From assembly GCA_965222155.1 (NCBI GenBank), contig CBDCTH010000012.1, forward strand, positions 1,344,001-1,408,000: a DNA stretch of 64,000 nucleotides, given 5' to 3'. Made by a program: the position numbers and the translations under genes. A model generated the notes under the pieces. It was given only the letters and a program-made list of their open reading frames with translations. It did no database searches and was not told the DNA's origin. Source of the stretch: Gammaproteobacteria bacterium (GTDB lineage Bacteria; Pseudomonadota; Gammaproteobacteria; Eutrophobiales; Eutrophobiaceae). Positions 49,838 through 62,317 of this stretch are shown piece after piece; within the stretch, counting starts at the first letter, position 1, and each line of letters starts with the position of its first letter.

Positions 49838-50200
49838 ATGAATAATCAGCATATCCATGTTGGTGTAGAAGATACCAATCGAGGTTTTGAGAGGTTTGTA
49901 GAAACGTGGGTACGCGCTGAAAAGGGTCAAATCACGGAAACGGAAGTTCATTTGAATTTTCAAGATTTGCGCATGCTGCTATCCATACTGACACCTCGCC
50001 GGCTTGAAGTACTGCAAACCTTGCGACAACAAAGTCTGTCCAGTGTGAGGGCCTTATCCAAAAACTTGAAAAGGGACTACAAAAATGTTCATGCCGATGT
50101 CCAGGCACTTGAAGGCGTTGGTTTATTGGAGAGAACGGAGGAAGGAGCTTTGCAGGTGCCCTGGGATATTATCGATGCTCATCTAAGATTAGTTGCGTAA
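49838..50200 (+). CDS. Winged-HTH putative antitoxin/regulator (HVO_A0114-like)
   Basis: LTPRRLEVL, SVRALSKNLKRDYKNVHADVQALE. Confidence 0.7.
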   Translation: MNNQHIHVGVEDTNRGFERFVETWVRAEKGQITETEVHLNFQDLRMLLSILTPRRLEVLQTLRQQSLSSVRALSKNLKRDYKNVHADVQALEGVGLLERTEEGALQVPWDIIDAHLRLVA

Positions 50201-50226
50201 ATATTTTTCAGATTGCTTTTGAACTG

Positions 50227-50261
50227 AAGGATGAAAGGATATATTATTTCCTTACATCCTT
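50227..50261. promoter_or_regulatory. Operator palindrome of the AbrB-PIN TA pair
   Basis: AAGGATGAAAGGA-9 nt-TCCTTACATCCTT (one mismatch). Confidence 0.6.
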
Positions 50262-50275
50262 ACTGGAAAACTACC

Positions 50276-50500
50276 ATGCTAGCCAAATTGACGTCCAAAA
50301 ACCAGTTAACTCTACCGAAAAAGGTGATGGTCGGTTTAGAGGACGCTGAGTATTTCGAGGTAACAAAAGAAAACGACCGCATCGTGCTGACGCCCATGCG
50401 TCTTGCCCGCGCGGGTGCTGTACGCGCTAAACTGGCTGAGATGGGTTTGTCCGAAGCTGACATTGCTGAGGCAATAGTCTGGGCGCGTCGCACTGAATGA
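50276..50500 (+). CDS. AbrB/MazE-family antitoxin
   Basis: MLAKLTSKNQLTLPK, RIVLTP. Confidence 0.85.
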   Translation: MLAKLTSKNQLTLPKKVMVGLEDAEYFEVTKENDRIVLTPMRLARAGAVRAKLAEMGLSEADIAEAIVWARRTE

Positions 50501-50946
50501 GTTCTCCGCGAGTTGTCCTCGACACCAATGTGCTGCTCTCGGCCCTGCTGTTCCACGCGGGGGCGCTCTTCTGGCTGCGCAATGCCTGGCAAACGGATGA
50601 CATTCATCCATTATCAAGCCGCGAGACTATGGCTGAGTTAATCCGGGTTTTGTCCTATCCTAAGTTCGATCTGACCGGTGCAGAGCAAGAAGATTTGCTG
50701 ACTGATTATCTGCCTTGGTGCGAGACTGTTGTTGTGTCAAAGCCACCTGCTATACCCCGGTGCCGGGATCCCTATGATCGTCCCTTCCTCGAACTGGCGC
50801 TTGTAGCACACGCTGATGCCTTAATAACCGGCGACAACGATATTCTTGATTTGGCACAAGTCTTTCCGGTCCCGATTCTCACCCCCCGCGCGTTCCGTGA
50901 TACCTGCCTCTTGCCGGACGACCGGGTAAAAAGAAAGAGTATTTAA
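50497..50946 (+). CDS. PIN-domain putative toxin
   Basis: RVVLDTNVLLSAL, CRDPYDRPFLELA, ITGDNDIL; ATGA overlap. Confidence 0.88.
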   Translation: MSSPRVVLDTNVLLSALLFHAGALFWLRNAWQTDDIHPLSSRETMAELIRVLSYPKFDLTGAEQEDLLTDYLPWCETVVVSKPPAIPRCRDPYDRPFLELALVAHADALITGDNDILDLAQVFPVPILTPRAFRDTCLLPDDRVKRKSI

Positions 50947-50956
50947 AAATCAATGG

Positions 50957-51050
50957 AAATCAATGGGGTCAGACTCGATTGATTTAGCGCATCAGATTCC
51001 TGTTTTCGCAGGTATGGCAGAAAATCAATCGAGTCTGACCCCATTGATTT
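50957..51050. repeat. REPIN-like long inverted repeat
   Basis: Perfect 29-bp arms AAATCAATGGGGTCAGACTCGATTGATTT, between convergent genes. Confidence 0.85.
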
Positions 51051-51052
51051 TT

Positions 51053-51688
51053 CTACGTGCTTTTAACAAGGGGTCCGGTAATTAATTCCCGGGTTGAAGC
51101 AACTTTCCCGAAGTGGCGCGCAAAATTGGTTAAGAACACTCTCTGTAATGTATCGGAATCCACTTCACCCCAGCCTAGATCCGGTATGCCTGATGCGGCT
51201 GTGACATCACTTAACATGTAAACGGAATAATCTCGTGAAACCGCGTCTCGCGCGGTCGATTCAACGCAAGCTCCGGTTGAAACCCCCGCAATCAGAAGAT
51301 TGACAACCTTTAATTCCTTGATTGTTGCATCCAGTCTTGTGTACATAAAACCGGATTGCCTGATCTTTTCAATGACTATATCACCGGCCTGGGGCGCAAT
51401 CTCCGGCCAGATAGTGACACCCTCAGTTCCGGCACGTACAGCTTTCCCATAGCGAATAACAGAAAAACGCTCCGCTAAAGAACCCATGTCATTGGCTCCC
51501 GGATGGTGGACATGATTCAAATAAATTATCGGTAGTTTTACCTCACGACAATGCCGGATAAATCTGATCAGGTTGGGCATCATATCCCGTCCTTCTTCAG
51601 TTTCAAACGGGGCGCCGATTTGTAAAAAGTCCAGACTCATGTCTATGACTATCAAAGCTGTATTGTCGGGTGATAATTCTGAGAACAT
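51053..51688 (-). CDS. Isochorismatase-family cysteine hydrolase
   Basis: ALIVIDM, IEK, GVSTGACVESTARDA. Confidence 0.88.
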   Translation of the reverse strand: MFSELSPDNTALIVIDMSLDFLQIGAPFETEEGRDMMPNLIRFIRHCREVKLPIIYLNHVHHPGANDMGSLAERFSVIRYGKAVRAGTEGVTIWPEIAPQAGDIVIEKIRQSGFMYTRLDATIKELKVVNLLIAGVSTGACVESTARDAVSRDYSVYMLSDVTAASGIPDLGWGEVDSDTLQRVFLTNFARHFGKVASTRELITGPLVKST

Positions 51689-51757
51689 TTTATTTTTTGC
51701 CTCACATGTTTATGTAAATAGTATGGGGTTAACCATATATGCAGGTTAAGGGCTTTC

Positions 51758-52276
51758 CTAAATAAATACCTGTAAGGGTTCGAAGGGAGCGTCACAGTTT
51801 ATTAAATCTACCCGTTTGAGACTGATTTTAAAATCCCGGTTATCCCGGCGCAGGTGGTAACGGTAAGTCCCGGCGAAAAGGCGTTGTTCACCCCGTTGGT
51901 ATTCGACCATCTGAAAACGCGTCGTGATGATGAGCTCGCTTGTATCGGGATTGATGCCCTCGATCACCTTATCCCCGGTAATATGGCTCGTGGTAATCGG
52001 ATGGACCAGGGAATGCGCGCGCGGATGTTGAATTCTTGCAATGCGCATTTCCATCAGGTCACGGTCTTCATAAAACAGGGAAATATCATTAACGGGATCC
52101 GTCTGTTCTTTCCTTGCCGGCACCCAGTACCTGCAGTCATCGGTGAATAATACCAGCCAGTCCGCGTAACGGCACTGGTCCAGGTATTCCGTTTCCCGGT
52201 AAAGTAACAACTCAATCGCTTCCAGAGCATCATCCGTGAGCTTGCTTGAGGTTATTTTGTCGGCAAAAATAATCAT
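51758..52276 (-). CDS. Aromatic ring-hydroxylating dioxygenase beta subunit
   Basis: LLYRETEYLD, YWVP, KRVDLINCD. Confidence 0.9.
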   Translation of the reverse strand: MIIFADKITSSKLTDDALEAIELLLYRETEYLDQCRYADWLVLFTDDCRYWVPARKEQTDPVNDISLFYEDRDLMEMRIARIQHPRAHSLVHPITTSHITGDKVIEGINPDTSELIITTRFQMVEYQRGEQRLFAGTYRYHLRRDNRDFKISLKRVDLINCDAPFEPLQVFI

Positions 52277-52305
52277 GGTTCGTCAACCCGGATTAAGCGT
52301 TTTCG

Positions 52306-52494
52306 CAGCAGTTCCCGCTAACTCCCGGGATCGAGGGCATCCTGCCCTCGTGGAGGGCGAGACGCCCTCCCAGGGAAACAGGCCCCTTTATCTCCTGGGG
52401 GACAGATTTAAATCTGTCCCCCCTGTCTATGGTCAGAGTATGCCCGAATCCAGCAATAATCACTGTATTGACCTCGGGTTAGCGGGAGCACCTG
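52306..52494 (-). mobile_element. MITE family A, full copy with 9-bp TSD, inserted in the last codons of the Rieske alpha gene
   Basis: Reverse copy of 44174-44349; GCGTTTTCG duplicated at 52297-52305 and 52495-52503. Confidence 0.9.
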
Positions 52495-53813
52495 GCGTTT
52501 TCGATACTATCCGGGCTGCACATATATGCCAGCCAGGCTCGATATTGGTTGCGGATGTACTGCTCACTTAGCGCAGATTGTGGTGAGACGTCGTCCAATT
52601 CAGGGTCAAACAAGCTATGCTGGCTTATCCATTCCCGGCCGGAAGAGTGCAATCCCTCCTGTACGCGGCGGTAGGCCTCGAGATCGTCGGGTTTTATCAG
52701 CGAGGAGGGGGAGTGAACAGTGTTGGCATAAGTGATATTTCTCCGGTTGATTTCATCGGGCGCGCCTTTCCAGCGGAATATGCTGATTTCAACAGCCGTT
52801 CTATCCACTGAAACCGGTCTGATCACTCGCATTTGCAGGAAACGCGGGTGAGCTGAGGCATTCGGGTAGAAACTCACATTGTGCAGGTTGGTATTCAGGA
52901 TTTTTCCGGACTTTTCCAGGCCGTACTGCCGCTGATGGCGGTTGACGTATTCCCGGTAGACCGGATCTGTCTCATTATCAGGATTACGGAAGCCGCGCAT
53001 GTCACTGTGGCCATATTCATAGCAGGTAACTTCCAGTTCTCCCATCTGCCGGTAACTCTGTGCGTTTGCCTGCACCAGTTGCAGGGCGAGCGGAGGAAGT
53101 TTACCTGGTGTTTTTTCAATTCTGCTGATTTGCTCCCGACTCGCCGCAATGGAGGATTGATGCACGCTCAACGGATGCATGCCGTCATGGAGGTTTTCCA
53201 GGTAAATCTTCCAATTATTACGGTAAATAGCGCGGAAACAAGTTCCGATAGCTTCCAACTCTCCCTGCGGCGAACGATCAACCATATTATCCAGGGCGCG
53301 CCGGGCGCCTCCCAGACAACCGGCCAGCCCGGGTGCGACAGCGGACAGGTTGGCAAATATGAAACCGCGGTAACTCCCCGACCTGATTTCGGAGAGACCG
53401 TAATCGGCCTGGTTGGTTCCAATTTCCGTATACTGATAATTATCCCGGCAGGGGATAGACAGCAACTCGCCATTTGTCTGATAGCACCAGCCGTGATAAC
53501 TACAGTTTAAGACTGCTGCATTGCCTTGTTTGTTTTCCAGCAGTTTTGCGCCGCGATGGGCGCAACGGTTGTGCAATACCCTGGTGGTATTATCCTCGTC
53601 GCGAATAACAATAACAGGATTGTCGGCGATTTCAGTGGTCAGGTAATCACCAGGATGCGCTATCTGGCTCTCATGGCACAGGTAGTTCCAGGAACGGGCA
53701 AAGATACGTTTTACTTCCAGGTTGAAAATTTCCGAGTCAAGATACACATCTTTATGTACGCAATCCGGCTGCACCAGAGAGCAGATATGATCTGTGTCAT
53801 ATGTATACTTCAT
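52479..53813 (-). CDS. Rieske aromatic ring-hydroxylating dioxygenase alpha subunit
   Basis: NRCAHRG...CSYHGW Rieske motif, ENLHDGMHP...H and DDLE mononuclear-iron ligands. Confidence 0.92.
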   Translation of the reverse strand: MKYTYDTDHICSLVQPDCVHKDVYLDSEIFNLEVKRIFARSWNYLCHESQIAHPGDYLTTEIADNPVIVIRDEDNTTRVLHNRCAHRGAKLLENKQGNAAVLNCSYHGWCYQTNGELLSIPCRDNYQYTEIGTNQADYGLSEIRSGSYRGFIFANLSAVAPGLAGCLGGARRALDNMVDRSPQGELEAIGTCFRAIYRNNWKIYLENLHDGMHPLSVHQSSIAASREQISRIEKTPGKLPPLALQLVQANAQSYRQMGELEVTCYEYGHSDMRGFRNPDNETDPVYREYVNRHQRQYGLEKSGKILNTNLHNVSFYPNASAHPRFLQMRVIRPVSVDRTAVEISIFRWKGAPDEINRRNITYANTVHSPSSLIKPDDLEAYRRVQEGLHSSGREWISQHSLFDPELDDVSPQSALSEQYIRNQYRAWLAYMCSPDSIENARCSR

Positions 53814-53894
53814 GTTTTTATCCAATAACCTGTTAGAGTAAGCATAAACCTTAATGCCATCCAATCTCATTATATTTATCCCAGTATAAGACCA

Positions 53895-55148
53895 ATGAGA
53901 AATATCGCCACACGTCGGCAGGGATTGACTGGAGAAAATCAAATTGCCTATCGCGGCTGGTGGATTGTGGCGATTGCCGCCGTTGCCATGTCGACCGGGC
54001 CGGGACAGTTTGCATTCGGCGCTCTGGGTCTGTTCATCAAGCCGCTGGGGGAAGAGTTTGGCTGGGACCGCGCCCAGGTGAGCCTTGCTGCGACCTACTT
54101 CACCATCGCTCTTGCATTCAGCATACCTGTCATCGGCCAGTTGGCTGATCGTTCCGGCAGCAGACGGGTGTTATTGCCCTCCATCCTGGTCTTTGCCGCG
54201 TTGCTGGCGTTGCCTGCCTTGCTGGTCGATACCCTGTGGAAACTGTATCTCATTTATATTCTGATGGGCTGCCTGGGCGCCGGCGCGAATGCGCTGCCTT
54301 ATTTACGCACCATAGCGACCTGGTTTGATGCCCGGCGCGGACTGGCAATCGGGATCGCGATGGGCGGCAGCGGGATGGGGTTTGCCTATGTGCCGCCCCT
54401 GGTCCAGTATGTCATTGATACTTACGACTGGCGCGCCGGTTATATCTGCCTGGCGATTTTTACCATGGTTGTGACAATACCCCTGGTGTATTTTTTTCTG
54501 CGTGACGCGCCGGCCGCACAGGGCAGGGTAGATGACCGCTACGGAGACTCCGAAAAATCTTCTCTGAAGCTGCTGCCCGTGCTTAAATCACGGTTGTTGT
54601 GGCAGTTATTCCTGATCTTCTGCCTGTTGTCGTTCGGTCTTTACGGTGTATTGGCACACCTGGCGCCGATGATGTCCGACCGTGGTATGACGATGGCTGA
54701 TGCCGCCCTGGTACAGTCCACGCTGGGTATCTCGATCGTTGTTTCACGTATTTTTGTCGGCTATTTAATCGACCGGTTTGTCGCCACCCGGGTCGCCTTT
54801 GTTTGCTTTTTGATCAGCGCCGGTGGGGTAGGTGTTCTCGCCGCCGGCGCAGTCAATGCGCCGGCTTTTTTAGCCGCTCTTTGCATCGGTCTGAGCCTGG
54901 GTGCTGAGATTGACATGCTGGCCTATCTAACCAGCCGTTACTTCGGCGTGGATAATTTCGGCAAGATATACGGCATCCTGTTTGCCTCCTTCCTTATCGG
55001 CACGTCGCTCGGCCCCTACGCATTCGGCCTGGCTTATGAAACGTATGGCTCATACCGGGAAGTATTGATATCAGCCGTCATTGTCATCATTATCTCGGCC
55101 GTCACTACCCTGTTGCTGCCGTCTTATAAAAGGTCGAAATTATTCTGA
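53895..55148 (+). CDS. MFS transporter
   Basis: GQLADRSGSR, WFDARRGLAIG, 12 TM segments. Confidence 0.88.
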   Translation: MRNIATRRQGLTGENQIAYRGWWIVAIAAVAMSTGPGQFAFGALGLFIKPLGEEFGWDRAQVSLAATYFTIALAFSIPVIGQLADRSGSRRVLLPSILVFAALLALPALLVDTLWKLYLIYILMGCLGAGANALPYLRTIATWFDARRGLAIGIAMGGSGMGFAYVPPLVQYVIDTYDWRAGYICLAIFTMVVTIPLVYFFLRDAPAAQGRVDDRYGDSEKSSLKLLPVLKSRLLWQLFLIFCLLSFGLYGVLAHLAPMMSDRGMTMADAALVQSTLGISIVVSRIFVGYLIDRFVATRVAFVCFLISAGGVGVLAAGAVNAPAFLAALCIGLSLGAEIDMLAYLTSRYFGVDNFGKIYGILFASFLIGTSLGPYAFGLAYETYGSYREVLISAVIVIIISAVTTLLLPSYKRSKLF

Positions 55149-55591
55149 TGTTCCTGGAGGGGGAGTAGAATTCATATGATAACTGTTTGTTATCACTAAA
55201 TAAAATCTGTTGTATTCTGCCTTTCTCAACAATATTTACAACATTTATACCAAAGGGATACAGTTGAATCGCCGCGTGTGCTACGTAGACCCTAGAGCTC
55301 AAGCGAACCTATCTCTGCTGGCCCCTATCGTCAATGTGCCATCGGCTAAGATTGATAAACCGTGATTTTCCTAAACAGTTCGTGGTACAAGAAAGGGAAG
55401 AGGGTCGGCTCGTAACCACTGCTGTATAAGACATATATCCGTAGAAAAAGAAGAAAAAATCACAATACCAATAGAAATTTCAATCAAATGATTTAATTTA
55501 TAGCCATATTGGTTAAAATATTGGTACAATATGTATTGACATCAGCTATTTTATATCATATGATTGGAATGAATGAGGATTTTCTACGAGC

Positions 55592-55948
55592 ATGGTGCTA
55601 GACGAGTCGATAAGGCACCAGTTGGTTCTCCTTGCACGAAGGCGTAAAGCCCGCGTGACTGAGTTTCGTTCTGATCGGCCGAGTGACTGGCGCCCTGGCC
55701 AGGTACGCAATCCAAATGGGGTGCTCGACAGCCACTTCACGGATGCATCAGCCTGGGAGTATATTGCGACCAAGCTTGAGAACGGACACCCTGTCGATGC
55801 CATGCGATTAGATAAGCCACCCGGGGCTAAGGGTTATGTGATGAAGATCGATATTGAGCCTGATATGCCTCAACTCTATGTCAAGCTGCAACTGGGATCC
55901 GGGAAGATCATCGGACGCAGTTTTCACTACTCTGAACGAAAAGACTGA
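55592..55948 (+). CDS. Putative MqsR-like (RelE-fold) toxin
   Basis: C-terminal LYVKLQL...SFH pattern typical of MqsR relatives; toxin-first arrangement. Confidence 0.55.
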   Translation: MVLDESIRHQLVLLARRRKARVTEFRSDRPSDWRPGQVRNPNGVLDSHFTDASAWEYIATKLENGHPVDAMRLDKPPGAKGYVMKIDIEPDMPQLYVKLQLGSGKIIGRSFHYSERKD

Positions 55949-55959
55949 AGAGCCTTGAA

Positions 55960-56520
55960 ATGAATCCAAATCAATCAACAACTGGGCTGCAGACAGTGCA
56001 GCAAGAACTTACGTGTCCACTGTGTGGCAACGCTGGCATAACGACATCATGGAAACCTGACGTATTCAACTATGGGTCCGGCGAATCCATGGCGGAACTG
56101 ACAGTGGATGTTCCTGTGCGCCGATGTGAAGACTGCGACCTCGAATATCTTGATGATGAGGCCGAACGATTGAAACACGGGGCGGTATGCCGGCATCTTG
56201 GCGTCCTGACGCCAGACGAAATTCGGCATATCAGAAAGGGGTTTGGTATGACACAAGCAGAATTTGCTCAGGTAACCGGTATCGGTGTAGCATCACTAAA
56301 CCGCTGGGAGAACGGCCTGACTATCCAGACGCAGGCGTACGACCGGTACCTGCGCCTCTTGACGGCGCACCCGAGCAATATCCGGGATCTTGAGAGGTTT
56401 ACGAACCTCGTCCCTTCCCTACAGTCCGAAGTCCCCTCCGGGAACCGATTCCGCGTCTTGGATGTGACCCAGAATTTACTGAAGGAACAAGAAAGCTTTA
56501 AGCTACGCAAAGCTGCGTGA
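55960..56520 (+). CDS. MqsA-like antitoxin (Zn ribbon + HTH-XRE) with C-terminal extension
   Basis: CPLC...CEDC, LTPDEIRHIRK..MTQAEFA...SLNRWENG; about 50 extra residues ending RKAA. Confidence 0.85.
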   Translation: MNPNQSTTGLQTVQQELTCPLCGNAGITTSWKPDVFNYGSGESMAELTVDVPVRRCEDCDLEYLDDEAERLKHGAVCRHLGVLTPDEIRHIRKGFGMTQAEFAQVTGIGVASLNRWENGLTIQTQAYDRYLRLLTAHPSNIRDLERFTNLVPSLQSEVPSGNRFRVLDVTQNLLKEQESFKLRKAA

Positions 56521-56524
56521 CGTC

Positions 56525-58375
56525 ATGTACATCACAACATTTTATTCCTTCAAGGGTGGTGTTGGCCGCACGATGGCCCTGGTCAACGCCGCCGTCAATC
56601 TCGCCCTGGCGGGCCGCCGAGTCCTTGTCGTGGACTTCGATATTGAGGCACCCGGACTTGATACCTTCGACGTTCTGAAGCCGCATAAAGAAGTTCCCGG
56701 GATCATCGATTTCGTCACCCAGTATCTGGGAACCGGGCAAGCTCCGAATATCTCCGACTTTATCGGCGAGTGTCCCCCTATCGGCGAACGAGATGGAAAG
56801 CTGTGGATCATGCCATCAGGCAGAAACGAGACTTATGCTACGACTTTCAATCAGGTTGACTGGGGTGATCTATATGAAAGGCGCGATGGATATTTGCTGT
56901 TTGAAGATATCAGGGGGCAATGGAAACAGACCTTAAAACCGGACTACGTGCTGATTGATTCCCGCACCGGACATACAGATACGAGCGGAATCTGCACTCG
57001 GCAGCTTCCCAATTCTGTTGTAGTCCTGTTCTTTCCGAATGAACAGAACTTGCGGGGCCTGGTCGATGTGGTCAGGGATATTCGGGCCGAGGCTGAGAGT
57101 CCGCGTAAAAAGAATATCGAATTTCACTTTGTGATGTCTAATGTCCCGGATATGGATGATGAAGATCGGATTCTCGAAAGTAAGATCAAGGCTTTTCAGA
57201 ACCAACTCGGTTTCCGGCAGGAACCGATGATTGTACATCGGTACGACAGTCTTTCCCTTCTTAACCAGGTGGTTTTTTCTAAGGACCGCCCGAAAAGCCG
57301 ACTGGCAAAGGAGTACAGCAAGATCGTGGGTGAAATTGCTGTGCGCAACCCGGATGATCGGGATGGAGCACTAGAGTATATCCGAAGGGCAGAGCGACCC
57401 CGAAAATGGATAGACGACGATTCGATACGCAGGCGGCAGGAGATGCTTGACAAGATCAAACGGGCGCACCCGACTGATGGAGAAGTTCTGTTTCGCCTGA
57501 GTGTGCTTAAAGAATCTCATGATGATCTGGAATCTGCGTCCTTACTGTATAACCAGGCAATTGATGCTGGGTACGATAAACCAGAAGCCTATTTAAAACG
57601 CTCAAAATTCAGCGAACAAAACAGCTATCCGGACGGAGCGAGCGAAGATGCCTGGCATGTGCTGAATTTTAAGCAAGTTCCTCCGACTATGGTAAGAGAA
57701 GCAATTTCCCGACTGATGCGTTTGGGGGCATATGACTTGAACGAGGTAGTCAATTCTCCCGCGGTAATGTCGCTGGACCCTGATGACAAGCTCTGGATAG
57801 CCGATCCGTTCGATAGTTCATTAAACGATGTACAGCTTACAATATCCCTCCTTGAACCAATCCTCGATGTCAGCGAACTATCGGAAAGCGATCGCTATTG
57901 CACAAAACATTACCTAGGGTTGTCGTATATGGGGTTAGGAAGATGTTTAGAGGCAGTGGGGATGTTTCGAATCGAGGACGAGGATATAACTGACCTGTAT
58001 ATTGCATATACGTTTAATTACGCAATGGCAATGTGGGGCGCAACCGGGACGATTCATGCTGAGATTTTTCAACGTGCCGTAGAGCTTGATCGCTCTGACC
58101 CTTCAGATGACGTCGGCCCGAACCACCTTCAGTGCATGGCGATTGCCTACTGGGCGGCTGGCGACGATAACGCAGCACTTAACTACGTGGACCAAGCACA
58201 GCGGGCTATTAATGACTTTCGAGGTCGAACGGAGTTTAGTTGCTGGCGTTATCTCCAGGTCGAAGTAAGGTCATTCGATGAGGATCTAGGTGAAATTCGT
58301 ACCTTGATCAAAAAACCTGGTTCTGTAGTGCCTAAATTTATGGCTGTGAAAGGTAACGGATCTGCCGAGGCGTAG
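56525..58375 (+). CDS. KGGVGR-type ParA/MinD-like NTPase fused to a TPR-like helical domain
   Basis: FYSFKGGVGRT, VVDFDIEAPGL, DYVLIDSRTG; Ala/Tyr/Leu-rich helical repeats in the C-terminal half. Confidence 0.82.
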   Translation: MYITTFYSFKGGVGRTMALVNAAVNLALAGRRVLVVDFDIEAPGLDTFDVLKPHKEVPGIIDFVTQYLGTGQAPNISDFIGECPPIGERDGKLWIMPSGRNETYATTFNQVDWGDLYERRDGYLLFEDIRGQWKQTLKPDYVLIDSRTGHTDTSGICTRQLPNSVVVLFFPNEQNLRGLVDVVRDIRAEAESPRKKNIEFHFVMSNVPDMDDEDRILESKIKAFQNQLGFRQEPMIVHRYDSLSLLNQVVFSKDRPKSRLAKEYSKIVGEIAVRNPDDRDGALEYIRRAERPRKWIDDDSIRRRQEMLDKIKRAHPTDGEVLFRLSVLKESHDDLESASLLYNQAIDAGYDKPEAYLKRSKFSEQNSYPDGASEDAWHVLNFKQVPPTMVREAISRLMRLGAYDLNEVVNSPAVMSLDPDDKLWIADPFDSSLNDVQLTISLLEPILDVSELSESDRYCTKHYLGLSYMGLGRCLEAVGMFRIEDEDITDLYIAYTFNYAMAMWGATGTIHAEIFQRAVELDRSDPSDDVGPNHLQCMAIAYWAAGDDNAALNYVDQAQRAINDFRGRTEFSCWRYLQVEVRSFDEDLGEIRTLIKKPGSVVPKFMAVKGNGSAEA

Positions 58376-58551
58376 TTCTGTTCAACCTCGGCATATCGGC
58401 TTAGACAGCACTCTACCGATTGGTGGTGGGGGAAAGAACACTATGAAATGGCTAAGAATTTAGGTGAGGCTATCCTGACTTTAATATCGATGATTACTAA
58501 CATCAATACTTTAGGAGGTTGAAGCTGCTACCTTCAACATATAACAAAAAT

Positions 58552-59873
58552 CATTAGTGTCCCAACGATTAATCGAATAAAATCAACTGGTTAGGTGTAT
58601 CGGGTTGTTTCATATTGTAATCAGTTTTGGTAAGTATATGATCCAGCGGCATTTTCTCAAAGACGGACACGCTCAAAATCTGTAATAGTGTGTAGAGACT
58701 AAGGGGGATATTGAGGCGTTTTTTGATAATGGCGACCAGGACATAGACCGTCATGGCGGTCCAGATTTGGGTTTTGACCGCGTGCTCGGCGGTGCCGTAG
58801 AAGGCGTTGATACGTAGAGGCTGCTTCATCCATTTGAAGAACAGTTCAACCTGCCAACGGCAGCGATACAGTTGGGTAATCGTGTGTGCAGGCAAGGTGA
58901 AGTGGTTAGTGAGGAAGACCAGTTGCCGGGTCGGTCACTTTGACTCTGCGGAGTTTATCCGGGTAGTGTTTGGCCGCGTAGAAGCCGGTGAGGACGACGG
59001 TCTGGTGGCACTGGAGGCCGGTGTGTTTATCGACGGGGCGGGCATAGCGGCGGCGCTAACGCCAGTGGGCCTTGGCCCGGACGATGAAGCAGGCGGCGGC
59101 CTGCTGCAAGGTGTAGCGGCGGCGGCAGTCCAGGTGGCCGCGCTCCATGATGTAGCGGGCGCCGGCTTCGGGCAGTAGCAGGTCGAGGCCCTTGACAGCG
59201 TGCAGTTTGCCGTCAGAGAGGTGGATAAACGTGGGAATACTGCCCCGCAGGTCGAGTAGCGTATGCACTTTGACGGCGCCTTTGGTGGTACGGACGCGGG
59301 CCCAGGGAAAGACGGACAAGCACAGGTCGATGGGGGTGGCATCAAGGGCATAGACGGTGTGTTTGAGTGCGAGGCCGACGTCCTCGTCGAGAGACAGTTG
59401 TCGGGCGCTGTGGATTAAGGCGTGGGCGACGTCGGCGTAGATGCGCCCGTCGCGGGTCGGGTTGGCATGGGCCAAGGTGTTGCATGAGACGGTGCCGCGC
59501 AAGCCCCTGTGGTACAACGTGTGGCGCTGTGCGCGCAGGCCGGCTTCGCTATCCCGCCGGCTCTCCCGGTAGGTGAGTTGAGCGAAGGCCAGACATAGGA
59601 ATTGGTCGAGGCAGGTGACGCGTTTGACTTTGTGGTGGCCGCGATAACGCTGCACACAGCGTCGGAAGGTATGCCTGGGCAGATGGGCCATGACTTGAGA
59701 GACGATGACGTTGCCGGTATACATGGGGCAAAACTCCCTGGTAATGAATAGGAGTGAGCGCAGGACAGGCAGGCGCCGCCGAATTCAAGTCGATGACAGG
59801 CAAAAATGATTTGTTTATTAAGCTATATCAATAAGTTACAACTACCCAGGCCTCAAACGTTGGGACACTAGTG
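58552..59873 (-). mobile_element. Inactivated IS4-family insertion sequence (DUF4372 + DDE transposase pseudogene)
   Basis: 16-bp TIRs CATTAGTGTCCCAACG / CGTTGGGACACTAGTG; transposase 59724->58569 with stop at 59056, frameshift near 58921, Y-R-E-K signature LYRCRWQVELFFKW. Confidence 0.92.
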
Positions 59874-59919
59874 AAGTCTTATAAAAAGACAGATCATTAA
59901 TCACCAGCGCTGAACGACG

Positions 59920-61311
59920 CTAAGCCGGCAGGATGTTGGCGTTCAACCGGAACAGGTTGCCAGGGTCGTACTGTCGCTTGACCTCGCGCAGGCGCTGGTA
60001 ATTTACACCGTAGGTTTCCTTAACCAGGCCTTCGCCGTGTTCGTTGTAGGAAGTCATATTGAGGTAGCCGCCATTGCCGGACGAGAAACGGGCCACCATA
60101 TCGTCCCACACTTTGCGTGTCCAGGCGATGTTGGCAGCCGTGTCCCCGGGCTCTGTCCACGATGAGTTGAACTCCATGAGATACGGCATGGAGCGGCTGC
60201 CGAACGCTGTCGCGTCGGCATCGATACGGGAACTGGCGCCGCGCAAATCATGCAGTACGAACGGCGTGCGTTTGGCCGGGCGTTCATTAAAGACCGTGAT
60301 CAATGCATCGAACACATCGTCCGTCATACGATCAAGGTATAGCGATTTCCAGTAATTCAGCAGCTCACCTTTCGGCAGGTACACGTCGAACATTTGCTGC
60401 ACGGCCGTGAAAGGTCGTGGGGCACTGAGATCAATGAGCGGCGTCGCAAGTTCCCGCAAAGGCTGTACGTATCGCTCACCTTCATCGGCTGGTCCGGCGT
60501 AGACACCGGCCGGGATAACGACTTCCTCGCCACGCAGTTCCGGCGGGAAGGTGTCGTGATCCGGGATCGTCCAGAAAAAGAATTCGGTCGTGAACGCATC
60601 GGGCGCCGTCTGCATGAATTCCCGCCAACCCTGCAGGATGGCGCGCGCCTGCGTCCCGGCGTACACCGGTGCACAATGCATGACCACGGGTCCCAATGGG
60701 TGCAAGCGGAACTCGAAGGTCGTGACGATACCAAAATTACCCCCTCCGCCGCGTATTGCCCAGAAGAGATCCGGATTCTCCGATGCATTTGCATGGCGCA
60801 ACTCGCCATCGGCAGTGACGATATCGACACTGAGAATGTTATCGACACTCATCCCGTACTTGCCGCGCACCCAGCCAAATCCACCACCGAGTGCGAGACC
60901 GGCAATGCCCGTTTCCGACACCACGCCGGCCGGCGCCACCAGGCCAAACGGCTGGGTTTCGTGGTCGATGTCGCCCAGCGTGGCGCCACCGCTGACCCAG
61001 GCAATTCGCTGCCCGGCATCGACCCGGACGCCGCGCATCAGCGACAGGTCTATCATCAGACCACCATCACAACTGGCATTACCCGCCACCCCATGACCGC
61101 CGCCGCGAACGGCCGGCAACAGGTCGTTCTTACGCGCCGTATTAACGCAATAACGCACGTCGGCAACACCCGTGCAGCGCACGATTGCCGCCGGACGCTT
61201 GTCGATCATGCCGTTGTGCAGGACCCGCGTTTCGTCGTAGGCCGCGTCACCCTGGCATAACACCGCGCCGCGAACGTTGTCGCGTAAAGATTGGATAATG
61301 GATTCGTGCAT
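59920..61311 (-). CDS. FAD-linked oxidase, BBE/6-hydroxy-D-nicotine-oxidase-like
   Basis: RGGGHG covalent FAD His, LFWAIRGGGGNFG, YDPGNLFRLN. Confidence 0.9.
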   Translation of the reverse strand: MHESIIQSLRDNVRGAVLCQGDAAYDETRVLHNGMIDKRPAAIVRCTGVADVRYCVNTARKNDLLPAVRGGGHGVAGNASCDGGLMIDLSLMRGVRVDAGQRIAWVSGGATLGDIDHETQPFGLVAPAGVVSETGIAGLALGGGFGWVRGKYGMSVDNILSVDIVTADGELRHANASENPDLFWAIRGGGGNFGIVTTFEFRLHPLGPVVMHCAPVYAGTQARAILQGWREFMQTAPDAFTTEFFFWTIPDHDTFPPELRGEEVVIPAGVYAGPADEGERYVQPLRELATPLIDLSAPRPFTAVQQMFDVYLPKGELLNYWKSLYLDRMTDDVFDALITVFNERPAKRTPFVLHDLRGASSRIDADATAFGSRSMPYLMEFNSSWTEPGDTAANIAWTRKVWDDMVARFSSGNGGYLNMTSYNEHGEGLVKETYGVNYQRLREVKRQYDPGNLFRLNANILPA

Positions 61312-61339
61312 GTGTCGGATATTTTAGCGCAAAGTCAGT

Positions 61340-62317
61340 CTAATAACAGCCTGCGACACGCGCCCTTTGTTGTACTAGAGTCAATACCAGGTCGATTACC
61401 GGGGTTGCTACGCCAACCAGTTGTCCCAGTTCATTTACCACACCCAGAAGAGCATCGATTTCCATGGTCCTGCCGGCTTCAAGGTCCTGCAGCATGGATG
61501 TTTTATGGGCGCCGACAGCGGCAGCGCCATTGATCCTCTGTTCCACGTCAATGCCAAACCGGACCCCCAGCTTTTCACCGATAGCCTGTGCTTCCAGCAT
61601 CATGGATTTTGCTATACCGCGCGTACCCGCCTCAGTCGCAATCACATCCAGGGTTGCGTGTGTCAGTACACTGATGGGATTAAAGCAGAGGTTGCCCCAT
61701 AACTTCACCCAGATTTCATTGCGTACTTCAGACCTCACCGGTGATTTGAAACCTGCACTGATAAGCGCTTTGCTCAGTTGGATACAACGTTCCGATTTTT
61801 CACCGTCGGGTTCACCCAGGGTAAATCTGTTTCCCTCTATGTGTTTAATAACACCCGGTTCACTGATTTCACAGGCAGGGTAGACAACACAACCGATAAC
61901 ACGCTGCGGACCGATCTCATTCCATTGGCGGTTACCAGGATCAACACTTTTCAGCCGGTGATTCTCCCAGGGACCCTTGAGCCCGTAAAAATACCACCAG
62001 GGGATACCATTGGCTGTAGTTACTACACAGGTTCGCTCTCCCAGCAACGGTTGCATCGCATCCAGGACATTCGGCACCGATGGTGCTTTCAGCGTAATAA
62101 TCACATAATCCTGGGGACCCGCTTCAGCGGGATCATGCGTACACTGCGGATAAGCGGTTATTTCCTGCCCGTCAGAAATTATTTTCAAGCCGTTTTTTTT
62201 CATCGCCTGCAGGTGCGGTCCGCGGGCAACCAGGGTGACGTCAACCCCCGATAAGGATAGCCGGGCGCCCATATACCCCCCGATAGCGCCGGCGCCATAA
62301 ATACAGATTCGCATCAA
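61340..62317 (-). CDS. Ketopantoate-reductase-like protein (PanE2/oxalyl-CoA reductase-like)
   Basis: GAGAIGG, NGIPWWYF, WVKLWGN, HKTSMLQD; coupled to the CoA ligase. Confidence 0.85.
   Translation of the reverse strand: MMRICIYGAGAIGGYMGARLSLSGVDVTLVARGPHLQAMKKNGLKIISDGQEITAYPQCTHDPAEAGPQDYVIITLKAPSVPNVLDAMQPLLGERTCVVTTANGIPWWYFYGLKGPWENHRLKSVDPGNRQWNEIGPQRVIGCVVYPACEISEPGVIKHIEGNRFTLGEPDGEKSERCIQLSKALISAGFKSPVRSEVRNEIWVKLWGNLCFNPISVLTHATLDVIATEAGTRGIAKSMMLEAQAIGEKLGVRFGIDVEQRINGAAAVGAHKTSMLQDLEAGRTMEIDALLGVVNELGQLVGVATPVIDLVLTLVQQRARVAGCY

Follow-up and report, generated by a model that had tools for sequence, protein, structure and literature searches.

Ternary systems termed TA-ParA, in which a type II toxin-antitoxin (TA) pair is combined with a ParA protein of the ConB2 clade, have been described computationally by Li, Burroughs and Aravind (22 October 2026, bioRxiv 10.64898/2026.10.19.760177; all statements about this preprint, here and below, refer to the part of its text that was available). 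ConB2 proteins are marked by an arginine in place of the Walker A lysine and by a PG motif after the DxD sensor, and the ParA protein of TA-ParA systems is fused to a C-terminal sensor, most commonly a tetratricopeptide repeat (TPR) domain. In toxin subtype iii, BECR RNases are paired with helix-turn-helix (HTH) antitoxins, as in MqsR-MqsA. It is proposed there that ParA acts as a switch which reorganises the TA pair upon sensing of an invader. TA-ParA systems are not enriched in multicellular bacteria, and other ParA proteins of the clade are fused to STAND, SAVED or TIR modules. The subject of the present analysis is a three-gene operon, g1-g2-g3, located in a stretch of 64,000 nucleotides (nt) from a gammaproteobacterial genome (GenBank assembly GCA_965222155.1, contig CBDCTH010000012.1, positions 1,344,001 to 1,408,000), referred to here as the window. 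Judged by its sequence, the locus is a member of this already described class, which is itself known by prediction only.

All of the sequence hallmarks named in the preprint are present in g3 (the arginine Walker A, the PG motif, the Walker B DhhhhD and the N of [NT]KxD), as are the C-terminal TPR sensor fusion and the joining of a type II TA pair and ParA in one conserved operon of three genes, and the switch model put forward there is the same as the one favoured here. In that reading, which we consider probable, the three genes form a TA-ParA system composed of an MqsR-fold toxin, an MqsA-type antitoxin and a ParA-TPR switch that guards a C-terminal tail of the antitoxin. An earlier note on this DNA, made from the sequence alone, had proposed a new kind of system; that claim gives way to the preprint, in which TA-ParA systems, MqsR-MqsA pairs included, are already described. 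The present findings go beyond the available preprint text, where no contact site is given: the tail is predicted to dock on the ATPase domain, it is lost together with ParA, an operator-like TCAWATGA element precedes the operon, and the cassette occurs in seven phyla.

The E. coli MqsR/MqsA pair (3hi2, 3gn5) resembles the locus in that the toxin gene comes first and a Zn ribbon at the N-terminus of the antitoxin is followed by an HTH domain at its C-terminus. Its toxin has a fold that matches the model of g1, but g1 falls outside PF15723; moreover, g2 has 45 extra residues (linker and tail) relative to E. coli MqsA, and a third gene is present here. The E. coli MqsRA operator presumably also differs from TCAWATGA. 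In toxin-antitoxin-chaperone (TAC) systems, such as HigBAC and MqsRA-SecB, a third protein likewise has a C-terminal antitoxin extension as its target, as is predicted here. That protein is a SecB-like chaperone, whereas here it is a ParA-TPR ATPase, and the preprint describes TA-ParA, compared with TAC, as "an entirely distinct theme" (bioRxiv 10.64898/2026.10.19.760177). A role of MqsRA-SecB in phage defence had been invoked in the earlier note as precedent; the precedent that was found concerns HigBAC, not the MqsRA-SecB module (PMC11980606, available in part).

The operon and its products

The locus was compared with a set of relatives for which one genome per species was scanned and the best 80 of 120 confirmed g1 relatives were taken. 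By tblastn, g1 is found in 80/80 of these loci, g2 in 79/80 and the ATPase part of g3 in 76/80. The ATPase gene follows g1-g2 in 75 of 79 loci, which come from seven phyla by record title, and the operon is thus conserved far beyond chance. Retention of the ParA-TPR gene alongside the TA pair was one of the points on which the earlier note had staked its proposal, and it holds. In the window the three ORFs are co-oriented and tightly packed, as had been reported, with 11 nt between g1 and g2 and 4 nt between g2 and g3; the gaps are short in most of the other loci too. ORF calling recovered all three genes intact by length in 58/80 loci and all three with odd lengths in 7 more. A shortened g3 (274-443 aa) is found in 9/80, and no g3 could be called in 6/80, in two cases solely because the contig ends.

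The product of g2 is an MqsA-family antitoxin by sequence. It matches TIGR03830 (81.4 bits against a cut-off of 61.8, 4.5e-23), PF15731 (46.9 against a cut-off of 30, 3.7e-12) and HTH_3 (1.7e-08), so the Zn-ribbon/HTH antitoxin of the earlier note is borne out. BLASTP aligns it with E. coli MqsA at 7e-10 over 128 residues, and a profile of the g2 family matches 3gn5_A across g2 residues 17-142. The Zn-ribbon cysteines C19, C22, C56 and C59, which form two CxxC pairs, are invariant. Past the MqsA core, g2 continues into a variable linker (residues 141-160) and then into a conserved C-terminal tail (residues 162-186) in which L182 is invariant and F164 and F180 are nearly so.

The product of g3 matches NF047398 ("KGGVGR-motif variant AAA ATPase") with 158.4 bits against a cut-off of 90 (2.5e-46). 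Its Walker A motif KGGVGRT, in which Arg replaces Lys as the earlier note had read it, is accompanied by D37xD39 followed by P43-G44, by a Walker B running from D140 to D145, and by N206. Residues K10, G11, G12, V13, G14, R15, D37, D39, P43, G44, D145 and N206 are invariant in 59 g3 sequences, D140 is at least 90% conserved among them, and every g3 called carries KGGVGR[TS]. The canonical KGGxGK[ST] of ParABS ATPases is not found, g3 having Arg, and the score for NF041546 (ParA_partition), 25.8, is below the cut-off of 180. The best sequence matches in the PDB are ParA, FleN, Soj and MinD, at E ~2e-4 and over the P-loop only; this search returned no close solved structure for the ATPase domain. 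The domain also matches the PADLOC model PDC-M28B in part (7.6e-30; the alignment spans only positions 131-356 of the 438 in the profile); neither g1 nor g2 has a match among the PDC-M28 models, and no paper text mentioning PDC-M28 was found.

The TPR-like repeats that had been noted in the remainder of g3 correspond to a TPR superhelix in an AlphaFold2 (AF2) model of residues 270-616, which has a predicted local distance difference test (pLDDT) score of 92 and a predicted template modelling (pTM) score of 0.86. Foldseek gave 53 PDB matches to this model at E <= 0.001, all those listed being TPR-type repeats, and VIA-align superposed it on 1w3b_A with Z 13.0 and a root mean square deviation (rmsd) of 6.6 over 282 aligned residues. 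In Pfam and NCBIfam the model matches of g3 are ParA/MinD-type and TPR only, with no SecB-like chaperone among them. In 10 close pairs all parts of the cassette are under purifying selection; the ratio of nonsynonymous to synonymous substitution rates (dN/dS) is 0.04-0.15 for the ATPase domain and 0.11-0.41 for the TPR domain, and is higher for the latter in 10/10 pairs. Faster evolution of the TPR domain is what would be expected of a sensor tracking variable ligands.

In three Binatia loci g3 stops after the ATPase domain (281-284 aa), and a conserved repetitive, beta-rich-looking ORF is found where the TPR domain would be (L014:7956-8693, L028:7833-8471 and L041:7788-8639). This ORF could be a replaced sensor or merely a neighbouring gene. 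In Pseudohongiella (L017:6946-9795) g3 is 949 aa long, some 330 residues above the usual length.

For g1, the best match of the predicted structure is the MqsR/RelE (BECR) fold. When the AF2 model was compared by VIA-align with 48,161 PDB chains, the top match was 3hi2_D (E. coli MqsR) with Z 8.2, an rmsd of 2.8 and 89 of 91 residues aligned; the next match had Z 5.0, and RelE, YafQ, YoeB and BrnT came at Z 3.6-4.3. The model thus agrees with the fold on which the earlier note had made its toxin depend. An Atlas lead for g1 was a cluster with PF15723 in 17% of its members. Among 88 diverse members of the g1 family, no substitution is seen at Y96, S110 or F111, and conservation reaches 90% or more at K98, R109 and H112. 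In a lone hhalign segment, which is not significant, Y96 is aligned with Y81 of MqsR, the Tyr within QVYLKI, which has a catalytic role in that toxin.

Several results weigh against this assignment. The g1 model is of moderate confidence (pLDDT 72), and hhalign of g1 profiles from two alignments against E. coli MqsR gave a probability of ~1% or less. None of 37 family members matches PF15723 at E <= 10 in a Pfam scan, and searches of PDB sequences with g1 (phmmer and profile searches) returned chance-level rows or none. Foldseek of the model against the PDB found nothing at E <= 0.001 and some weak NTF2-like rows; an NTF2-like reading was set aside, as the full VIA-align scan ranks MqsR clearly first. 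g1 itself has no match in Pfam (none at E <= 1), NCBIfam, PADLOC or PHROGs. From the modelled fold we conclude that g1 is likely to work like an MqsR-type RNase, outside PF15723 as that family stands. A word-indexed search found 466 relatives, and an exhaustive search 477 representatives at 50% identity, with 369 at E <= 1e-10 and 21 at E <= 1e-30. The g1 family is large, yet without a family model, and could be named and annotated.

Upstream of g1, the conserved operator-like element is, by sequence comparison, a TCAWATGA palindrome lying over the -10 box. In 68/80 loci the 200 nt preceding g1 contain TCAWATGA, as against 8 such sites in the other 936,928 nt of these loci, and ATCATATG is found in the upstream regions of 71/80. 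At least two TCAWATGA sites are present in 32/80 loci, where their spacings cluster at 41-42 (one at 40), 51-53 and 71-74 nt, approximately 4, 5 or 7 helical turns. The operator role is assigned because the element is conserved across loci and not because of its count inside the window, which is at chance level (6 sites against 5.2 expected). The leader (55370-55591) is AT-rich, as had been noted, with 32% G+C against 50% for the window. The palindrome ATATTGgtaCAATAT, to which the earlier note had drawn attention, is present but not conserved; it is missing even from the closest relative, L002, and was rejected as the operator.

A third exact copy of TCATATGA is found at 55172-55179, just past the stop codon of the upstream major facilitator superfamily (MFS) gene and about 420 nt upstream of g1. 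It may be a chance occurrence, the window-wide count being at expectation.

The antitoxin tail and the ATPase domain

The tail of g2 is predicted to dock on the ParA domain of g3, near the site bound by ParB and MinE peptides. In a complex prediction with three chains (g1, g2 and g3), with g3 as the scored partner and 3 controls, the score was 0.61 (0.61, 0.60 and 0.62 in separate runs) against 0.00 for the best control. A mark of 0.61 is attained by 58/80 solved complexes and 2/110 mismatched pairs, although the use of custom alignments and of three chains sets this job apart from its calibration. Contact agreement between runs was at least 43% and partner pLDDT at least 82. Of the arrangement expected for the TA-ParA class, a complex of all three products in which ParA governs release of the toxin, the prediction supports the g2-g3 contact, as a model. 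The predicted interface comprises g2 residues 161-184 and g3 residues 71-76, 113-135, 150-160 and 185-194, all within the ATPase domain. PDB profile and sequence searches of g2 and g3 found no similar solved complex, and recall of a known structure is therefore unlikely.

The surface of ParA and MinD to which ParB and MinE bind is formed by the insert after beta-2 and core helix 4 of the ParA fold (bioRxiv 10.64898/2026.10.19.760177), and the predicted site on g3 matches these elements. The correspondence is one of sequence position rather than superposition, and g3 differs from these ATPases in having Arg for the P-loop Lys. No ParB-like match for g1 or g2, and no ParB or MinE homologue, was found in Pfam or NCBIfam.

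Natural variants of the locus are in agreement with the predicted contact. Among the 79 loci with g2, tail and ATPase occur together in 64, an ATPase with a diverged tail in 11 and neither in 4, whilst a tail without an ATPase occurs in none. In the four ATPase-less loci g2 is 159-168 aa long or fused, and the tail is missing in all of them; one further genome, G152, has g1 and a tail-less g2 of 163 aa with no g3. Where g3 has been reduced to its ATPase part, g2 is still full-length. This co-loss parallels the way in which an antitoxin extension brings about chaperone dependence in TAC systems (PMC5105189, abstract).

Some observations speak against a guarded tail, or at least temper it. The TPR domain lies outside the listed interface and no confident g1-g3 contact is listed. 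The earlier note had the third protein acting on the antitoxin, which the complex prediction upholds, but the contact falls on the ATPase domain and not on the TPR domain. A simple deletion starting after the essential MqsA core could equally give co-loss of tail and g3, and the existence of bipartite g1-g2 loci indicates that g3 is dispensable for keeping the pair. The co-loss is thus supportive, not decisive.

Proposed mechanism, alternatives and distribution

On how a ParA-type switch could control a TA pair, in a class known so far from computation, the locus offers a compact and well-conserved case, with a defined operator and a specific predicted contact of a 25-residue tail on the ATPase domain, and natural tail-less and ParA-less variants are available for comparison. 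In the mechanism favoured here, g1 would be an MqsR-fold endoribonuclease toxin, neutralised by the zinc-ribbon domain of g2, and the HTH domain of g2 would repress the operon at the TCAWATGA palindromes flanking and overlapping the promoter. The TPR domain of g3 would serve as a sensor fused to the ParA-type ATPase, in which the substitution of Arg for the P-loop Lys suggests a nucleotide-dependent switch rather than a motor. The conserved tail of g2 would dock on the ParA domain, roughly at the ParB/MinE peptide site, making the antitoxin ParA-dependent, with the resting ParA holding or masking the tail. The TPR domain would respond to a cue, probably some protein encoded by an invading element, upon which ParA would change state; the antitoxin would then be lost or rearranged and the RNase would arrest the cell. 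This guard model is favoured on the ground that no locus without ParA has kept the tail. Computation shows what the genes are, that they are conserved together, which operator motif they share and that the cassette is mobile, and it predicts the contact between tail and ParA; toxicity, the cue, the direction in which the switch works and any role in defence are inferred. If the antitoxin does depend on ParA through its tail, the system would connect two themes, ParA control of the ParB/MinE kind and the dependence of antitoxins on a chaperone.

A version of this model in which the system is an immune module is doubtful, if a real possibility. Here the tail would be a ParA-interaction peptide of the ParB/MinE kind; an invader protein caught by the fast-evolving TPR domain would cause the Arg P-loop switch to flip, the tail would be freed and the antitoxin destroyed, and the RNase would abort the infection, making the cassette a self-contained immune module that moves between phyla.

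The logic might also be reversed, which we judge rather unlikely: ParA-TPR would be unbound at rest and, upon the cue, would dimerise with ATP, seize the tail and pull the antitoxin off the toxin or off its operator, acting as an active switch and not as a guard. In its favour, the contact site is like that of ParB and MinE, which bind the ATP dimer (bioRxiv 10.64898/2026.10.19.760177), and the complex prediction does not separate a resting from an activated state. However, a tail that was a mere activation handle should not be selected away together with g3, and 0/79 loci keep a tail without the ATPase; this argument rests on small numbers, four loci plus G152.

By its distribution, the cassette is accessory and mobile. 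Within the same family as the window, 1/24 other genomes has the cassette intact and 1/24 a remnant; it is found in 0/16 further genomes of the class, and a g1 relative occurs in 2/400 genomes of a phylum sample. In a blastn comparison of window positions 50001-62000 with a locus of the same genus (L098, genome G022) there is a single match of 2891 bp, and the flanks are unrelated. The acquired cassette suspected by the earlier note is in keeping with this. The G+C content of the cassette is 0.498 against a window mean of 0.504, and this comparison of base composition gives no signal of recent acquisition. In a tree built from 65 g3 proteins, 11 changes of phylum label are required, as against a minimum of 6 and ~27 for shuffled labels; Spirochaetota are intermixed with Acidobacteriota, and an Entotheonella sequence falls within a proteobacterial clade. 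Such mixing of phyla indicates that the cassette has repeatedly been transferred between phyla.

A decayed copy is present in a further genome of the same genus (G003, L099:6686-7175), where g1 is reduced to its 22 C-terminal residues and g2 to residues 1-140, at 81-86% identity, and g3 is missing.

A survey of the surroundings of the cassette took in one ORF per side, the closest with 120 aa or more, and the 25 commonest families per side. These neighbours are mostly metabolic genes and include no replicon genes. Defence-type families are rare (upstream ResIII in 2/79; downstream Piwi in 2/77 and the N6 DNA methylase N6_Mtase in 1/77), and at one ORF per side there is no enrichment of defence genes. 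The enrichment in defence islands that the earlier note had suggested looking for did not appear among these neighbours, a result which counts against a role in immunity.

These findings suit a selfish addiction module, an ordinary TA pair that spreads horizontally, in which g3 tunes the antitoxin level or autorepression to a cellular cue and which has no role against phages or plasmids. Besides the mostly metabolic neighbours and the same-genus cassette in unrelated flanks, its patchy occurrence (2/24 same-family genomes, 2/400 in the phylum sample), the existence of decayed copies and the lack of enrichment of TA-ParA in multicellular bacteria (bioRxiv 10.64898/2026.10.19.760177) would all be expected of it. 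We nevertheless hold it to be improbable, given that g3 is under purifying selection across seven phyla, that the TPR domain evolves faster than the ATPase domain in a manner fitting a sensor of variable ligands, and that ParA proteins of the clade are fused, according to the preprint, to STAND, SAVED and TIR modules typical of immunity. A partition-like system, with g2 as a ParB-like adaptor on a TCAWATGA centromere and the ParA-like g3 segregating a mobile element, is very improbable indeed: a DNA-binding protein whose tail is predicted to contact a ParA domain, and the repeated palindromes, would accord with it, but the P-loop Lys is replaced by Arg in every copy, TPRs are fused to the ParA domain, the chromosomal loci vary in context and have no replicon genes nearest to them, the palindromes overlap the operon's own promoter, and every locus has a toxin gene upstream.

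A common association with sponges is hinted at by several record titles (Poriferihabitans, Entotheonella and a Spongia bin, presumably all sponge symbionts); the majority of titles are silent on habitat, and this is a lead, not a result. The available preprint text makes no mention of sponges (bioRxiv 10.64898/2026.10.19.760177).

Feature coordinates and neighbouring genes

Table 1. Features of the g1-g2-g3 locus and its flanks, in window coordinates.
Feature	Position	Strand	Description
g1-g2-g3	55592-58375	+	three packed co-oriented genes
g1	55592-55948	+	118 aa ORF; candidate toxin with MqsR-like (BECR/RelE) fold, unnamed family
g2	55960-56520	+	186 aa ORF; MqsA-family antitoxin/repressor by sequence
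g2 tail, residues 160-186	56437-56517	+	predicted ParA-docking peptide beyond the MqsA core
g3	56525-58375	+	616 aa ORF; KGGVGR-variant ParA ATPase fused to TPR superhelix
g3 N-terminal domain	56525-57334	+	KGGVGR-variant ParA/MinD-type ATPase domain
g3 Walker A KGGVGRT, residues 10-16	56552-56572	+	Arg in place of Lys
g3 C-terminal domain	57335-58375	+	TPR superhelix with small beta hairpin; presumed sensor
Sigma-70-like promoter	55536-55564	+	TTGACA-17 nt-TATGAT; top promoter-like site in 55100-58700, 11/12 positions
Proximal operator-like palindrome	55556-55563		TCATATGA; overlaps the -10 box
Distal operator-like site	55484-55491		TCAAATGA; 72 nt upstream of the proximal site
Palindrome of the earlier note	55518-55532		ATATTGgtaCAATAT (ATATTG and CAATAT around gta); present, not conserved
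Unit shared with same-genus cassette	55484-58368	+	85% DNA identity; limits of transferable unit
8-bp inverted repeat	58363-58370 and 58386-58393	+	arms TGCCGAGG and CCTCGGCA; spans the g3 stop codon
MFS transporter	upstream of g1		PF07690, 6e-47
Split IS4-type transposase, C-terminal DDE_Tnp_1 part	58569-58895	-	downstream of g3
Split IS4-type transposase, DUF4372 and N-terminal DDE_Tnp_1 part	59056-59724	-	downstream of g3

The MFS gene and the insertion sequence (IS) relic between which the earlier note had placed the operon are both found, the latter as a split IS4-type transposase (Table 1), whose two parts the family scan places at 58572-58895 and 59059-59724. The hairpin that it had described at the end of the operon is there as far as its arms go. 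As a terminator it was rejected, since its loop of 15 nt is not followed by a T-run and a terminator scan of 55100-58700 called 0 sites. The DNA likeness to the same-genus cassette stops at 58368, within the left arm of this repeat.

In six Acidobacteriota loci, most of them titled Vicinamibacterales (L058, L066, L068, L069, L074 and L078), a very large co-oriented ORF (1160-1234 aa), probably a neighbour specific to this lineage, ends 120-190 nt before the start of g1. FG-GAP_3, TPR_2 and TPR_CcmH_CycH are each found in 5/79 upstream neighbours, the carriers not being specified.

A second KGGVGR-type ParA domain (NF047398, 1.4e-38) is encoded in the same genome outside the window (L090:5745-8552, at ~2.03 Mb on contig C12). 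It is fused, in a protein of 935 aa, to an ORC-CDC6-like STAND-type ATPase (PF24389, 7.6e-85), and is surrounded by two upstream ORFs (244 and 334 aa) and a downstream ORF (314 aa) without a family match, followed by an N6 DNA methylase gene. The fusion resembles the ParA-STAND fusions reported in the available text of the preprint (bioRxiv 10.64898/2026.10.19.760177).

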